Origin: an uncultured Hormoscilla sp.
GTDB lineage: Bacteria; Cyanobacteriota; Cyanobacteriia; Cyanobacteriales; Desertifilaceae
Direction of reading: 5' to 3'
NCBI GenBank assembly: GCA_963921275.4
Contig: OZ001293.3
Location: 2,816,001 to 2,880,000 of the forward strand
Length of the DNA stretch: 64,000 bases
A model generated the notes under the pieces. The model searched no databases, was not told the origin of the DNA, and saw nothing but the letters and a program-made list of their open reading frames with translations. The number at the start of each line of letters is the position of its first letter. The first letter of the stretch is position 1. A program made the position numbers and the translations under genes. Shown here one piece after another: positions 1,540 through 42,930 of this stretch.

Positions 1540-1791
1540 ATGGAGAGGACATTTGACTATTCAGAGGGTTTTCCAGAAGTTGTTATCTCAACTGTTTTAG
1601 CTGAAAATCGTTCGGACTATAATCAAAATGCGGGTCTCAAGGAGGTGCAAGAGCCAATCGTTAGTGCTGTGCCGGAAGTCCGCAAAATTATTGAGCGGGT
1701 CTTGGAGCTGGAAAAAGATAAGCTCTATATGAAGGTTCCCAAATATATTAATGATGATATCCTGCAAATTGTTAAGGAAGAAGTGCAATGA
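1540..1791 (+). CDS. Small hypothetical protein coupled to the SMC-like ATPase
   Basis: ATG at 1540 (MERTFDY...), downstream of the repeat; its stop overlaps the next start (ATGA, 1788-1791). Confidence 0.65.
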   Translation: MERTFDYSEGFPEVVISTVLAENRSDYNQNAGLKEVQEPIVSAVPEVRKIIERVLELEKDKLYMKVPKYINDDILQIVKEEVQ

Positions 1792-3854
1792 GGTTGAGGT
1801 CGATTATACTCTGTAACTTTCGTCAGTTTTATGGCAAGACTGAAGAAATTTTTTTGGCTAGCGGTGCTACGAATATTACGATCATTCACGGCAATAACGG
1901 GGCGGGGAAGACCACCCTGCTGAATGCTTTTACCTGGGCCTTGTACGAGAAGTTCAGTGCGGCTTTTACTTCTCCCCAGCAACTGGTGAACAAACGGGCC
2001 CTGCATGAAATTAAATCAGGTAAACAGGTTGAATGCTTGGTGGAAGTTGCCTTTTATCATGATAGCAGGCGCTATCGGGTCAAGCGCATCTGTCGCGCCT
2101 ATAAGAAAATGAATGGCATTGAATACAGTCCGACAGAGTTGTCGATGTGGGTGGCCGGAGATGACGGACGCTGGATGCCTACTCATCAAAACCCGGAGGA
2201 TATTATCGGACGCATTTTACCCCCCAGTTTACATCAGTATTTCTTTTTTGATGGAGAGCGCATAGAGCATATTTTTCGGGATAATCGGAAAACGGAAATT
2301 GCTGATGCTACTAAGGAGTTACTGGGTGTAGAGGTGTTTGATCGGGCCCTCAGGCACCTGAAGGCTGCTAGCAAAAGCTTGGAAGAAGAATTAGGAAACC
2401 TCGGGGATCCGCAAACCCAAAAGCTGCTGCAAGATAAGCTGAAATTAGAAGAACAGGGCGATCGCATCAGCAAGCGGCAATTGGAAATTGCTCAGGAGTT
2501 AGAAAAGCACCAGGAATTAAAAAGAACCATTAACAGTCGGTTACTGGAGCTAAGTGGTGCGAAGGAGTTACAAGACCGGCGTGCTAGCCTAGAAGCACAA
2601 GAAAAGCATCTCCGCGAACAGTTGAAACAGGCGAAAGTAGGGATCAAAAGAGCGATTAATACTAAAGAATACAGCTTTTTGCTATCAGAGGCAACGGCGG
2701 AATTTAGAACAATAGTCGAGCAACTGCGGCAGAAAGGAGAGTTACCGACGGGAATTACGCAACAATTTGTCCGGGAGTTACTCAAACAGCAGCGCTGCAT
2801 CTGCGGTGGGGACTTAAAAGAAGGCACCCATGGCTTCGATACGATCCAATCATGGATAGAGAAAGCGGGAATTGCCGATGTAGAAGAAACAGCCATTCGC
2901 ATGAGCGCCCAAATAGAAGAAATTGACAAGCAGGCTCCCGAATTTTGGCGAGAAGTGGACAGACAGCAAGGGAATGTCAAGCAATGGCGGGCGGAACTTT
3001 CGCGAGTGGAGACGGAGATGGACAATTTGAAGAACAAGCTGAGAACGAACCCCAATGAGAATATTCAGCAGTTGCAACAGCGCTTGGATGAAATTGAAGC
3101 CAAAATCAGTCAATTGCAAAGAGAAACGGGAGCCAACCACCATAAGCTAGATAAGATTAAAGCGGACATTGAGGTCAAGGTCAAGCAGATGGCCAAGCAG
3201 CAAACGAATGAGCAGAAGCAAGCTTTAGCCCAGCGACGGGTGGAAGCGACGGTGGACGCGATGAAGCGGATCTCGGAAGTTAAGAATCGTCTAGATAAAC
3301 AGTTTCGCTGGCAATTGGAACAGCGGGTGCAAGAGATATTCAGTCAAATTTCCTTTACTCCCTACATTCCCAAGCTGTCTGAAAAATACGAACTGACCCT
3401 GGTGGAGAATACAACTAAGTTAGAAGTACCCGTGGCCGCCTCTACGGGAGAAAACCAGATTCTCAGCTTGTCATTTATTGGCGGGATTATCGATCGGGTG
3501 CGGGAGTGGAGTAAAAGCAAGATGCACATGGGACCCGATAGTAGCACATTTCCGATGGTCATGGATTCGCCCTTTGGCAGTTTGGATGAAATCTATCGCC
3601 GCCAGGTAGCTTCATCTCTGCCCCAATTAGCAAATCAGCTAGTAGTTTTAGTCACGAAAACCCAGTGGCGGGTGGAGGTCGAAGAAGAAATGACTCCTAG
3701 AATTGGCCGGGAGTACCTGTTGGTATATAATTCGCCGAAACCAGATTGTGAGGAAGATAGCATCCAGTTAGGGGGAGTGAGTTATCCTTTAGTCAGACGC
3801 AGTCCGAACGAGTTTGAATATACTGAGATCGTCGAGGTAGAACGTCATGGTTAG
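1788..3854 (+). CDS. SMC/Rad50-like coiled-coil ABC ATPase (DndD-like)
   Basis: Walker A GNNGAGKTT, FFFDGE, central CICG zinc-hook, signature ASTGE, Walker B/D-loop VMDSPFGSLD, long coiled coils. Confidence 0.85.
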   Translation: MRLRSIILCNFRQFYGKTEEIFLASGATNITIIHGNNGAGKTTLLNAFTWALYEKFSAAFTSPQQLVNKRALHEIKSGKQVECLVEVAFYHDSRRYRVKRICRAYKKMNGIEYSPTELSMWVAGDDGRWMPTHQNPEDIIGRILPPSLHQYFFFDGERIEHIFRDNRKTEIADATKELLGVEVFDRALRHLKAASKSLEEELGNLGDPQTQKLLQDKLKLEEQGDRISKRQLEIAQELEKHQELKRTINSRLLELSGAKELQDRRASLEAQEKHLREQLKQAKVGIKRAINTKEYSFLLSEATAEFRTIVEQLRQKGELPTGITQQFVRELLKQQRCICGGDLKEGTHGFDTIQSWIEKAGIADVEETAIRMSAQIEEIDKQAPEFWREVDRQQGNVKQWRAELSRVETEMDNLKNKLRTNPNENIQQLQQRLDEIEAKISQLQRETGANHHKLDKIKADIEVKVKQMAKQQTNEQKQALAQRRVEATVDAMKRISEVKNRLDKQFRWQLEQRVQEIFSQISFTPYIPKLSEKYELTLVENTTKLEVPVAASTGENQILSLSFIGGIIDRVREWSKSKMHMGPDSSTFPMVMDSPFGSLDEIYRRQVASSLPQLANQLVVLVTKTQWRVEVEEEMTPRIGREYLLVYNSPKPDCEEDSIQLGGVSYPLVRRSPNEFEYTEIVEVERHG

Positions 3855-4320: not shown

Positions 4321-5285
4321 ATGGTTAGTGCAGAATTGACTGTGGAACATGTGGTGACGGATACTTGGGTGCAGGCTAGCTGGGAATAATTTATGGCGCT
4401 AGCTGATAATCCAGCTTATAATAAGGGGAGGTTCTATTACGATCAGGGTGACATGAGAATTGAAATGTCACCAGTAGGCTATAGTCATGGTCAGGATAAT
4501 GGGGTAGTATACTATATATTGCTCCTTTATGCAACGATCGAGAATATCCGGATTAAAGGAGTGGTAAACACCAGTTTGAAAAGAAATGTAAGTTTCCTTA
4601 CACCGACATGGACAAATACCTATGGGAGCTGCTATGGCAATGGGCAAAAAGAAGGCATCCCAACAAAACGGGCAAATGGATTGCCAGTAAATATTGGGCC
4701 ATAACCGGGAAAGACCGGTGGAGGTTCACGGGCAAATCAAAAGAAAATGGAGAAATAAAGCTAAACCGGCACTCTGAAACTGAGATAATCAGACACACAA
4801 AGGTAAAAGGGACAGCTAGCCCGTTTGACGGTAACCTAGTCTACTGGAGCCAGAGATTAAGAAAGAGCCCGGACGTAAGCACGAGAGTGATTAACCTACT
4901 CAAGAGGCAGGAGGGCAAGTGCCAGCATTGCGGACTAACGTTTAAGAACGGCGACAAATGGGAAGTGGACCACATTCTGCCAACCTCACTGGGAGGAAAG
5001 GACTGGTACTCCAACCTACAGTTGCTACACGATTACTGCCATGATTATAAGTCTGCCAGGGATGGCAGCAAAGGCCGTATCCATGACAAGGATGACGAAA
5101 CTGAGGAGCCGGATGAGGTGAAAGTCTCACGTCCGGTTTTGAAGACGAGTCGGTACGGTGACGTACTGGCTTAGTTTAATAACTTTGAACCGCCTGCTTT
5201 GGTGGTGGAAAATGCAGCATCTTCTCTTAGGGATGATTTGGGACGGAAGCGGTTACTATAGGAAGGGTTGGGAATGCAAGAATAT
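4321..5285 (+). pseudogene. Uma2-family endonuclease pseudogene interrupted by a group II intron remnant
   Basis: MVSAELT...ASWE*FMALAD...RIEMSPVGYSHGQDN at the 5' end; resumes after 5180 as NFEPPALVVE...DDLGRKRLL*EGLGMQEY. Confidence 0.75.
4590..5180 (+). mobile_element. 3' remnant of a group II intron (maturase X C-terminus + HNH endonuclease, RNA domains V and VI)
   Basis: ORF 4608-5174 with WAKRRHPNK and CQHC...DHILP...NLQLLH. Domain V GAGCCGGATGAGGTGAAAGTCTCACGTCCGGTT at 5106; domain VI ends TTTAAT at 5180. RT domain absent. Confidence 0.9.
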
Positions 5286-6215
5286 CCCAAGGTGATCGGG
5301 GGCTACCACATAGCGGAAAAACTAGGAGTACCGGGATATTTATGCCTACTATTTCCCTGCTACGTCCCCACCGCCGCCTTTGCTAACCCCATCTTTCCGG
5401 ACTGGAAACTAGGAGGTTGGTACAACAAACTGACATACAAAATCGTTCCCTGGATGAGTTTTACCTATCGGGATTTAGTGAATAGCTGGCGGTCCGAAAG
5501 CTTGCAGTTACCGCCGACTCGATATCCAGTAGGTAACTTGGTAAAAACTAACGGAAAACCGGTTCCAGTTATGCATTGTTACAGTCCCCTGGTTGTGCCA
5601 AGGCCCGATGACTGGGGGGAAGGGGCGATCGCGACCGGATACTGGTTTCTGGAACCGCCAGCGGATTGGCAACCCCCAGAGGAACTGATAGAATTTCTAG
5701 CAGGGGGAGAGGCTCCAGTTTACGTAGGATTTGGTAGTATGGCGGGGCGAGACACGCAAAAATCAACCAAACTTGTCTTAGAAGCCTTGGCAAAGTGCGG
5801 TCAGCGGGGGATAATAGCCAAAGGTTGGGGAGGTTTGGAGGCGTATGAACTGCCAAAAAACATCATTCAGGTAGAAGCAGTGCCCCATAGCTGGTTATTT
5901 CCCCAAGTAGCAGCGGTAGTGCATCACGGAGGCGCGGGAACCACAGCAGCGGGGTTGCGTGCGGGTAAACCGACAGTTATTTGTCCGTTCTTTGGGGATC
6001 AACCCTTTTGGGGGAAGCGCATTTATGAGTTAAAAGTCGGTGCTAAACCTATTCGGCAGAAAGTATTGACAGCGGACAAGTTAGCAGCTGCTATTAATGA
6101 AGTTATCAGTGATGAATTAATGGGCAAGAGGGCGCGGGCCCTGGGCGAGAAAATTAAAGCAGAGGATGGAGTGGGGCGGGCCGTTGATTTTATTGAGAGA
6201 CAGAGTCATTCGTAG
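5283..6215 (+). pseudogene. GT1 glycosyltransferase (sterol 3-beta-glucosyltransferase-like), N-terminally truncated
   Basis: VYVGFGSM, HHGGAGTTAAGLRAGKP and PFFGDQPFWG motifs. The N-terminal region is missing, and the first ORF residues (GMQEY) belong to the Uma2 tail. Confidence 0.75.
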
Positions 6216-41429: not shown

Positions 41430-41813
41430 CTATACCCGCGCACCAGCACGTTCCGCCACAAAATTCAGCGCATTCCGACAAGCGTTGTACTCTTGGTTTG
41501 TGGTCGGCAACTCATCACCGGTCTTGAAACTCAGCGATCGCAGCACCGCATTGACACCGGTGGTGGCATTGGAGACAAAGGCCAACTCAGTCTCGTCAGC
41601 ACCGACAAACGCCCCTAACTGACAGCGAGCATCATCCAGCAGCGGTTCCAAATCCCGAACAAAAAAGCCTACAGGATTGCGCTCCAACTGAGATCGCCAA
41701 TATTGCTGCCGTTCTAGTACCGGTAGCGGACAGGCCCCAAAAGATCCATGATTGAGATAGGCCAATGTTGGATCGAGGTACCAGAACTCCCTCCAATCAG
41801 TTTCCTGATACAT
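41430..41813 (-). pseudogene. Class V aminotransferase (isopenicillin-N epimerase-like), 3'-truncated
   Basis: YLNHGSFGACP, FVSNATTGVN; only 127 aa. Confidence 0.8.
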
Positions 41814-41980: not shown

Positions 41981-42318
41981 CTCCCCAGGCTGGATTCGAA
42001 CCAGCGACCAATCGGTTACACTTATCCCCACGTTTCCGCAGGGGGCGGACTATCTCATCATCCTGATGGGATGTCGGGCGCTTGTGGGATTTATTGGACA
42101 GGCTCCTCATCCCTAGTCTCTGCACCTTTCTGGCTACCTGTGGAAACCACCGCCTTTCGCCAGACTTGGCTCAGGATTACCGGCATCCTAAATGCTACGG
42201 CTTCCCTGAATTCACCCGATTTTCCACTATTCGTTACCGAATAGCGCTGCTAAGTCATCGATGCAGCACTTGCATCTGTTCCAAACAGCCGATCGCTCTA
42301 CCGCTGAGCTACTGAGGA
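41981..42318 (-). tRNA. trnN: tRNA-Asn(GTT), split by a group I intron
   Basis: Exon 1 42318-42285 TCCTCAGTAGCTCAGCGGTAGAGCGATCGGCTGT plus exon 2 42018-41981 TAACCGATTGGTCGCTGGTTCGAATCCAGCCTGGGGAG give a 72-nt cloverleaf with anticodon loop CTGTTAA. Confidence 0.93.
42019..42284 (-). ncRNA. Group I self-splicing intron (IC3-like), 266 nt, no ORF
   Basis: P AATTCAGGGAA, Q AATCCTGAGC, R GTGCAGAGACTA, S GAGATAGTCC; 5' exon ends in U and intron ends in G; IGS TTAGCAGC. Confidence 0.92.
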
Positions 42319-42330
42319 TTGACATTTACT

Positions 42331-42360
42331 AATGTAGCAAGACTCGATCTGATTTGTCAA
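42331..42360 (-). promoter_or_regulatory. Sigma70-type promoter for tRNA-Asn
   Basis: TTGACA-18 nt-TACATT on the minus strand, with an upstream A/T tract. Confidence 0.6.
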
Positions 42361-42387: not shown

Positions 42388-42930
42388 CTATTTCAGACCC
42401 ATCCGCAACTGGGCGAGACGCGCTTGAGTGCTGGGGTCTAGGGATTTTACCATAAATCTGCTAGATGATTTTTTGGCTGGTAACTGGTGCCGGCCCACCT
42501 TACTGGTCATTGATGCCACCTCCGAGGCCAACTGAGTTGCGGAAATGCATTCTGCCCCATATCCCACCACCGTCACTTGCTGAACTTGGTCTGAGGTGAC
42601 CGCGATTATTCGCTGCCGGTACTTCCGCACATCGTCGCGAAACTTGGCACAGGTTATCTCTATATAAGAATCTGCTGTTTAGCCAAACTCAGTGTAATGG
42701 ACCGATAAGTTTTCCGTCACCACCTCGCGAGTCTTGGGGGTGTAATGAGCATCAAACACCAGGATAATCTCAAAACCCTGCCAGGCACTGTAATTAGTTA
42801 ACACCTCAACCAGCTGCTCGCGCGCCGCCTGTAGACCGTGGCGCGCGAGGGTCTTTTGCAGCGAAGTCCATGCTCCGATCACGTTGTAGCCGTCCACCAG
42901 CACAACTGCTTTTGGTAATGCCCGTCCCAT
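42388..42930 (-). pseudogene. NYN-domain (YacP-like) RNase with an in-frame stop
   Basis: LVDGYNVIG, LVFDA, G*TADSYI, VTSD; TAA at 42679. Confidence 0.8.

Follow-up and report, generated by a model that had tools for sequence, protein, structure and literature searches.

The question raised by this locus is whether a 64,000-nucleotide (nt) stretch of an uncultured Hormoscilla sp. (GCA_963921275.4, contig OZ001293.3, positions 2,816,001 to 2,880,000; the whole stretch is referred to as the window) contains a tRNA-Asn gene that gene finders do not see. Default ARAGORN called tRNA-Phe as the sole tRNA within the window, with no tRNA-Asn elsewhere in it, and a scan of the window with the Rfam tRNA model did not report the gene described here either. 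An initial annotation had placed a tRNA-Asn gene with the anticodon GUU at positions 41981 to 42318, split inside that anticodon by a group I intron, and had predicted that standard tRNA finders would miss it, which both programs did. Based on the analysis below, we consider it highly probable that the locus is a functional tRNA-Asn(GUU) gene, split between anticodon positions 35 and 36 by a 266-nt group I ribozyme without an open reading frame (ORF), and the element looks splicing-competent.

Both exons lie on the minus strand. Exon 1 (42285 to 42318, 34 nt) provides the 5' strand of the acceptor stem, the D arm, the 5' strand of the anticodon stem and C32, U33, G34 and U35. Exon 2 (41981 to 42018, 38 nt) starts with U36, A37, A38 and the 3' strand of the anticodon stem and continues with the variable loop, the T arm, the 3' strand of the acceptor stem and the discriminator G; CCA is unencoded. 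ARAGORN, run on the scripted join of 42318-42285 to 42018-41981, returned the 72-nt tRNA-Asn(gtt) that had been proposed, a cloverleaf with a GUU anticodon, and the acceptor strand TCCTCAG of exon 1 forms seven of seven pairs with exon 2. With U1 at the start of exon 1 and the discriminator G at the end of exon 2, the joined molecule has an Asn-type body, G73 being an Asn identity element. According to the accessible part of a survey of 61 cyanobacteria, U1 is conserved in cyanobacterial tRNA-Asn and tRNA-Gln, and G1 in the other isotypes (PMC5733544).

The intron (42019 to 42284, minus strand) follows a U (42285), has G (42019) as its last base and was assigned by covariation and by the Rfam group I model RF00028. 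The model matches 42273 to 42026 on the minus strand over positions 1-253 of 253 with 84.9 bits (E 3.5e-20; gathering score 50), which bears out the group I core that had been read from the sequence; the insertion site and boundary bases are also as first noted. The features of a group I intron found here are the catalytic core P3-P8 with its P3/P7 pseudoknot and the joining segments J4/5, J6/7 and J8/7, a U·G pair at the 5' splice site, the omega-G with P9.0, and P10. The 5' strand of P1 is the exon sequence GCUGU (42285 to 42289), and its 3' strand lies in the internal guide sequence UUA-G-CAGC (UUAGCAGC, 42246 to 42253), which also holds the P10 partner. Pairing of GCUGU (42289-42285) with GCAGC (42250-42246) sets U35 (42285) opposite G 42250, which gives the 5' splice site its U·G wobble; two further pairs lie beyond an internal loop. 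In P10, UUA of the guide (42253-42251) pairs with UAA of exon 2 (42018-42016) over 3 base pairs (bp), again as claimed. The P1 pairs, in alignment columns 8-12 with 77-81, occur in all 15 cyanobacterial sequences aligned below, P10 ranges in relatives from 2 bp (most cyanobacteria) to 4 bp (Clostridia), and cyanobacteria, Clostridia, one Omnitrophica metagenome-assembled genome (MAG) and an archaeal copy all keep the guide as UAGCAGC or something close to it.

Downstream of the guide, the P2 hairpin (42227 to 42244) carries a GUAA loop and four of its six pairs are changed on both sides; P9 (42026 to 42043) carries a GAAA loop and six of six pairs are compensatory. Both loops, L2 and L9, are GNRA tetraloops in 15/15 cyanobacterial sequences. 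The 5' strand of P3 and the P4, P5 and P6/6a/6b domain (42124 to 42219) were placed by RF00028 and covariation, and the 3' strand of P3 (42074 to 42080), P8 (42059 to 42073), J8/7 (42053 to 42058) and the 3' strand of P7 (42047 to 42052) by RF00028 and the alignment. The 5' strand of P7, GAGACUA with a bulged A (42114 to 42120), agrees with the Rfam consensus AGACUA and forms six invariant pairs with 42047-42052 in the guanosine-binding helix. P9.0 (42045-46 with 42020-21) has 2 bp, one of them covarying, and precedes the terminal omega-G (42019). An extra hairpin of 28 nt (42086 to 42113) lies between P7 and P3' as an insertion relative to the Rfam consensus, with three of five stem pairs compensatory. 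The ORF list contains no sense-strand ORF of at least 60 amino acids (aa) in the intron and thus no endonuclease ORF of the kind found in mobile introns, in line with the initial annotation; an antisense 77-aa ORF had no Pfam match.

Between the 5' splice site and the guide lies a 17-nt hairpin, GAUGCA-AGUGC-UGCAUC (42260 to 42276, -7.3 kcal/mol). It had been singled out as an insertion in the P1 loop; the hairpin is there, and as a lineage-specific hairpin in L1 it is normal for the family, being found in all cyanobacterial relatives but one. Its loop and 3' arm (42260-42272, minus strand) hold GUGCUGC, a 7-bp match to the guide with C-G at the place of the splice-site U·G, and Rfam placed the first helix of RF00028 on this intron-internal sequence rather than on the exon. 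Since GUGCUGC is shared by the window and the Hormoscilla copy alone, without conservation in the other 13 aligned relatives, we took it as incidental and rejected it as P1, although such a mimic could compete with P1 formation.

The sigma-70-type promoter that had been noted upstream was found at 42331 to 42360 on the minus strand (TTGACA, an 18-nt spacer and TACATT with a TG extension; 10/12 matches). Its -10 hexamer stops 13 nt short of the tRNA 5' end, and a 1-kb scan gave three promoter-like sites versus 1.0 expected. By eye, a TTG[A/C]CA ... TAnnnT pair precedes the gene in every one of the 16 cyanobacterial relatives whose upstream flank is long enough. No terminator-like site turned up.

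Comparative support for the fold came from an alignment of 15 distinct sequences of the cyanobacterial clade, including 12 nt and 10 nt of exon flank. Without a model, RNAalifold recovered the anticodon stem, P1 with the U·G pair in 15/15 sequences and a covarying 2-bp extension, P2-P6b, the extra hairpin, P8, P9 and P9.0, with 26 of 73 pairs compensatory. P7 was put in by hand before the pairing statistics were taken. With it, 98.3% of 1164 cells were paired, versus 27-43% when the 3' partners were slid by 1-3 columns, and 26 of 78 pairs were changed on both sides. For pairing, compensatory counts and covariation score, none of 500 shuffles came up to the real alignment; the number of further pair types did not stand out (148/500 shuffles were equally high). 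P1, P7, P8 and most of P3 are invariant, and their support is by conservation only, while P10 lies beyond a covariation test because the exon is invariant.

We then asked how widely such a gene occurs, using as pattern the 3' half of tRNA-Asn from position 36, preceded by G instead of the T35 of an uninterrupted gene. In a collection with one genome per species, at least 117 loci matched. Exon 1, ending in CUGU, was sought with a structure-aware finder based on acceptor and anticodon-stem pairing, and with a second finder based on the D-arm motif. Among the matches listed, to which the following counts refer, exon 1 was found 202-898 nt upstream in 94 of 117 loci, giving a complete tRNA-Asn split at 35/36. 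A stricter exon-1 finder that demanded a perfect Watson-Crick anticodon stem missed most loci and was superseded. Of the 23 loci outside the 94, 19 have at most 300 nt of upstream sequence, too little to judge. Exon 1 was not found by motifs in L054, L065 and L077 despite ample flank; L065 is a second DPANN match (Woesearchaeota). One false positive, L088:362-438 in a Binatia MAG, is a tRNA-like gene without an interruption; its anticodon stem resembles that of tRNA-Asn, its loop reads CUGGUAA, ARAGORN labels it tRNA-???, and it matched the pattern through a chance G.

The 94 hosts comprise Bacillota (Clostridia, 29), Cyanobacteriota (23: Microcoleus, Tychonema, Phormidium, Floridaenema, Hormoscilla, Oscillatoriaceae and one Thermostichales), Saccharimonadota (8), Nitrospirota (6), Chloroflexota (4), Doudnabacteria (4) and one archaeon (Pacearchaeota). 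The remaining 19 are other Patescibacteria, further bins and single loci, the last in Elusimicrobiota, Omnitrophota, Bipolaricaulota, Binatota, Gemmatimonadota, Melainabacteria and proteobacterial bins. Of 20 loci spread over the phylogeny, 16 had an RF00028 match at or above the gathering score in the expected position, and a seventeenth (L018) gave 76 bits with laxer filters. In L062, a cyanobacterial MAG, the model scored 41 bits with the match split by an ORF, and neither of the two Clostridia inserts tested was matched even at E<=0.01. A profile hidden Markov model (HMM) built from the cyanobacterial alignment recognised 70 of the 94 introns at E<1e-3; it missed 23 Clostridia-type introns and L010, the latter recognised by Rfam, and its matches in Clostridia (6/29) were weak. 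A blastn search with the window intron against plasmid and phage collections gave no match.

The two halves of these genes have evolved together. When exon 1 was located by the D-arm motif alone, seven of seven acceptor pairs formed in 94/94 genes; their acceptor stems fall into 24 haplotypes, and the discriminator is G in every one. If the exons were not ligated into a functional tRNA, compensatory change across a gap of 200-900 nt would be difficult to account for, and the co-evolving halves are the strongest indirect evidence for splicing in vivo. We infer that splicing takes place in vivo and, as a further inference, that it does so without protein help.

Although the initial annotation had presented the locus as unusual for cyanobacteria, it is no oddity of one genome: the same syntenic intron is found in Hormoscilla, Floridaenema, Phormidium, Microcoleus and Tychonema, and interrupted genes occur in at least 94 species-level genomes. 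The window intron shares 95.8% identity with its counterpart in a Hormoscilla sp. MAG (L002), 86-87% with those of Floridaenema and Phormidium and ~78% with those of Microcoleus and Tychonema. Over 3.8 kb, its flanks match the Hormoscilla contig at 94.6-96.2% identity, and they also align with Floridaenema, Phormidium and Microcoleus, so the tRNA-Asn locus is orthologous across these genera. The 14 differences between the window and Hormoscilla introns include six in paired columns, and all six are still paired in the window. In a quick maximum-likelihood tree of 58 introns, from which 13 rows scoring <24 bits and 24 without a profile match (23 Clostridia-type and L010) were left out, the 23 cyanobacterial rows, the window and one further bin lie on one side (Shimodaira-Hasegawa-like approximate likelihood ratio, SH-aLRT, 87), and the six Nitrospirota rows form one group. 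Host labels require 11 changes on the tree versus a minimum of 9 and a shuffled mean of 23. The tree fits mainly vertical descent within phyla after an older spread.

Several points weigh against a functional split gene and its shared history. Splicing is for every family member a prediction from sequence, and the contacts at the splice sites are short, with five exon pairs in P1 and 3 bp in P10 (in most cyanobacterial relatives, 2 bp). Since parts of exon 2 were set by the survey pattern and the end of exon 1 by the finder, P1 and P10 count as conservation, not covariation. Intron identity to Hormoscilla is not above that of the flanks, and this pair alone therefore points to no extra constraint. 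The cyanobacterial branch is not strongly supported in what was a quick tree search, and the tree columns came from a cyanobacteria-built profile, which may bias the alignment. The neighbourhood also appears worn: a YacP-like NYN gene (42388-42930, minus strand) is broken into two ORFs matching profile positions 1-74 and 93-165, a 127-aa ORF (41430-41813, minus strand) matches positions 41-116 of a 371-position class-V aminotransferase profile, and there is no ORF of at least 200 aa between 36.7 and 44.3 kb of the window. These broken neighbours suggest local gene decay, and in an eroding region a recent inactivating change could have occurred that is invisible in the sequence.

The alternative that survives best leaves the split gene functional and assumes that the intron is removed in vivo with the help of an obligatory protein cofactor or chaperone; we regard this as unlikely, a minor share of the probability given to the functional gene and not an addition to it. 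The shortness of P1 and P10 and the extra P7/P3' hairpin speak for such dependence, whereas the core is complete, its score is well above the family threshold and L2 and L9 remain GNRA throughout the alignment. Bacterial tRNA introns of like, small size, among them those of Azoarcus and Anabaena, self-splice in vitro. For the similar-sized Azoarcus intron this is stated in the accessible part of PMC13168695.

Far less probable, and in our view very unlikely, is that the split gene, in a symbiont-type genome undergoing erosion, has become redundant or is in decay and splices poorly while an intact tRNA-Asn lies elsewhere. Both fragmentary neighbour genes and the 7.6-kb stretch around the tRNA without a long ORF would fit this. 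There is also a precedent for coexistence: the 412 kb of survey loci, in which default ARAGORN called none of the 94 interrupted genes, contain one intact tRNA-Asn(GTT) (L039:1949-2024), ~1.5 kb downstream of the split copy of a Clostridia MAG. One genome can thus hold an intact and an interrupted allele side by side, as seen in at least 1 of the 117 loci listed. Against decay, every tRNA and intron helix in the window is intact and the six paired-column differences keep their pairing; the promoter is intact, the split gene is retained at the orthologous locus in several genera, the acceptor stem is perfect in 94/94 genes, and there is no intact tRNA-Asn in the window or beside any cyanobacterial copy. 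The window gene may be the only tRNA-Asn of its genome.

The weakest alternative came from the intron mode of ARAGORN, a check suggested by the initial annotation, which did recover the split gene, shifted by 2 nt and labelled 'tRNA-Thr (tgt) i(33,266)'. This reading, with splice sites 2 nt upstream at both ends (U33^ ... G^UGUAACC) and tRNA-Thr(UGU) as product, likewise follows a U and ends in G, and we give it practically no credence and exclude it, since its P1 U faces an A of the guide rather than G, the U·G register is kept in 15/15 cyanobacterial and 14/14 Clostridia sequences, U1 is that of cyanobacterial tRNA-Asn and tRNA-Gln and not the G1 of other isotypes (PMC5733544, accessible part), and the discriminator is G in 94/94 split genes.

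For a functional tRNA-Asn(GUU) gene with a self-splicing intron, we propose the following course of events. The gene would be transcribed from its own sigma-70-type promoter, and the intron would fold into a P1-P9 core in which GCAGC and the exon GCUGU mark the 5' splice site by the U35 wobble, with the anticodon stem of both exons, intact, flanking the P1 helix. An external guanosine would attack after U35; the terminal G (42019) would then enter the P7 pocket while UUA of the guide holds the exon 2 UAA in P10. Ligation would restore the loop CUGUUAA, and RNase P, 3' trimming and CCA addition would complete the tRNA. As to its origin, the family would have spread by homing and then been inherited vertically in an Oscillatoriales clade, with the window copy lacking an endonuclease gene.

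The introns at this site differ in architecture. The segment between P7 and P3' measures 18-63 nt in 56 of 57 aligned relatives (2 nt in L062). The Clostridia introns are 214-248 nt long and leave only ~4 nt from P7 to P3'. Folded by themselves (14 of 29 introns), they give a consensus with P1 (U·G in 14/14), P2 with a GAAA loop, P3, P4/5, P6, P8 and two 3' hairpins, with 24 of 73 pairs compensatory; because of this fold and the shared guide and P7 motifs we count them as group I. Judged by these predicted folds, the Asn 35/36 introns form two structural lineages, split by the P7/P3' hairpin. Helices between P7 and P3' are a mark of subgroup IA, not of subgroup IC3, to which the classical tRNA introns (Leu, Ile, Arg) belong and which is defined by compactness, location in the anticodon loop, GNRA loops L2 and L9 and no peripheral P7/P3' helix. 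The window intron is a compact anticodon-loop intron with GNRA in L2 and L9 and has the 28-nt P7/P3' hairpin, so we assign it to no subgroup.

Some relatives carry genes of the homing type. Eight long variants (507-640 nt), in Nitrospirota, Saccharibacteria and other Patescibacteria, Melainabacteria and one further bin, have an ORF starting within the first 2-60 nt of the intron. Pfam HNH scored four of these above its cut-off (L009, L047, L064, L070) and three below it; the ORF of L014 had no Pfam HNH match and by eye shares the motif. L1 measures 305-351 nt in seven of the eight (L070 is outside that alignment), which places the HNH gene in L1, where the window has its 17-nt hairpin. L062, with an intron of 898 nt, carries a LAGLIDADG_2 gene (90 bits) placed around the extra P7/P3' hairpin, which is displaced in the alignment. 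With such genes in relatives, the Asn intron family most likely spread by homing, and the window copy would be an ORF-less descendant of a family that includes homing-type members.

In the archaeal case (L098:100-295; Pacearchaeota MAG, JBAZNI010000001.1, 565 kb), an archaeal-type tRNA-Asn with a G1-C72 acceptor is split at 35/36. The 225-nt insert scores 78 bits with RF00028 and has the guide GUUA-G-CAGC as in the family; it may be the first group I intron in an archaeal tRNA. Two MAGs contributed more than one locus. The Saccharibacteria MAG CAYYQK01 has a complete interrupted tRNA-Asn on each of two contigs (L052 and L057; introns of 223 and 271 nt), and thus either holds two interrupted copies in one bin or is a mixed bin. 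In MAG CAZYQT01, two pattern matches (L045, L107) both lie near a contig end with exon 1 out of sight. Many Clostridia copies are near contig ends, and L012 adjoins a 5S rRNA gene, as expected for rRNA-tRNA arrays.

A broader reading, which we put forward tentatively and think somewhat more apt to fail than to hold, is that of an old, unrecognised pan-prokaryotic mobile family of at least two lineages, whose HNH and LAGLIDADG homing enzymes target the anticodon loop of tRNA-Asn; cyanobacteria would thereby have a third tRNA intron family, after Leu and fMet, and the family would include the first archaeal tRNA group I introns, and often sit in the only tRNA-Asn, also in this host. If so, all Asn decoding in such hosts would depend on ribozyme activity, and annotations would silently lack tRNA-Asn. 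For the window, too, translation would depend on a ribozyme if the interrupted gene is the only tRNA-Asn. In practice the introns matter most for annotation. Carrier genomes, among them Microcoleus, Tychonema, Nitrospira, Patescibacteria and many gut Clostridia, will seem to be without tRNA-Asn, distorting completeness checks and work on codon usage. The Asn host and the site within the anticodon at 35/36 would join the classical list of Leu, fMet, Ile and Arg. A single site with ORF-less, HNH-bearing and LAGLIDADG-bearing copies across phyla offers natural material for studying anticodon-loop homing, and the archaeal copy is relevant to an old question, why protein splicing should be the rule for all tRNA introns of archaea.

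A second intron-like element lies elsewhere in the window. Positions 5103-5180 on the plus strand match group II intron domains 5/6 (RF00029, 58.5 bits; RF04357, 62.4 bits). The surrounding ORFs match an AAA/SMC-like ATPase (1788-3854) and a glycosyltransferase (5268-6215), neither of them a reverse transcriptase, and the match may be the end of an ORF-less or truncated group II intron.

Open-access PubMed Central and bioRxiv full text, when searched, yielded no account of a tRNA-Asn group I intron from bacteria or archaea. Early Saccharibacteria (TM7) genome papers may mention an interrupted tRNA. The initial annotation had mentioned, as a point to verify, reports of 35/36 tRNA-Asn introns in Patescibacteria; the introns are present in the sequences (Saccharibacteria, Doudnabacteria, Nealsonbacteria and others), and a reporting paper was not found in that search. 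The accessible part of PMC5733544 gives only Leu and fMet as known hosts of cyanobacterial tRNA introns and adds 'introns' of 22-49 nt in other tRNAs, which would be too short for group I ribozymes. The tRNAscan-SE 2.0 paper and preprint (PMC8450103; 10.1101/614032), in their accessible parts, name fMet and Ile2 only, and the accessible text of a review of bacterial group I introns (PMC3984707) has no occurrence of 'Asn'. In the accessible text of Lui et al. 2021 (PMC8172020) certain tRNAs of the complete genomes are said to contain group I introns, with a private communication cited and the isotype not given; its three supplements contain no match for 'intron' or 'Asn'.

Set against known systems, the Asn intron is ordinary in kind, being a group I intron of a tRNA anticodon loop; its host gene and its site are apparently undescribed. 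Like the cyanobacterial tRNA-Leu intron, it is small, mostly ORF-less, located in the anticodon loop after a U and inherited along host lineages, and in both the anticodon stem formed by the exons contributes to the fold of the precursor. The two differ in host tRNA and in position, the tRNA-Leu intron being inserted after U34 and the Asn gene being cut after U35, and the Asn intron has the extra P7/P3' hairpin absent from the Rfam consensus. An anticodon-stem requirement is named in the title of Zaug et al. 1993, as cited in the accessible part of PMC3984707. With the tRNA-fMet intron it shares the cyanobacterial anticodon-loop location and an endonuclease gene in some copies, unlike it in host gene and in enzymes, which are HNH and LAGLIDADG in the Asn family. 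The enzyme of the fMet intron has another fold. That intron is reportedly sporadic, whereas the Asn intron occupies a syntenic locus across an Oscillatoriales clade. The host gene of the tRNA-fMet intron was missed by tRNAscan-SE, according to the accessible part of PMC8450103.

The resemblance extends to the IC3 introns of Azoarcus tRNA-Ile(CAU) and Agrobacterium tRNA-Arg(CCU), which are compact, lie in the anticodon loop and pair the final nucleotides of the exon in P1. They also share with the Asn intron the GNRA loops L2 and L9. These two introns follow position 36, after the anticodon. Unlike them, the Asn intron splits the anticodon itself at 35/36 and, at 266 nt, has an L1 hairpin, P6a/6b and the P7/P3' hairpin; the Azoarcus intron has 205 nt (PMC13168695, accessible part). 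Finally, the Pacearchaeota copy recalls the archaeal group I introns that Nawrocki, Jones and Eddy found in 2018 by covariance-model search in DPANN and other archaea. In the accessible part of that work all 39 of 39 introns lie in rRNA genes (PMC6125680), whereas L098 lies in a tRNA-Asn gene.

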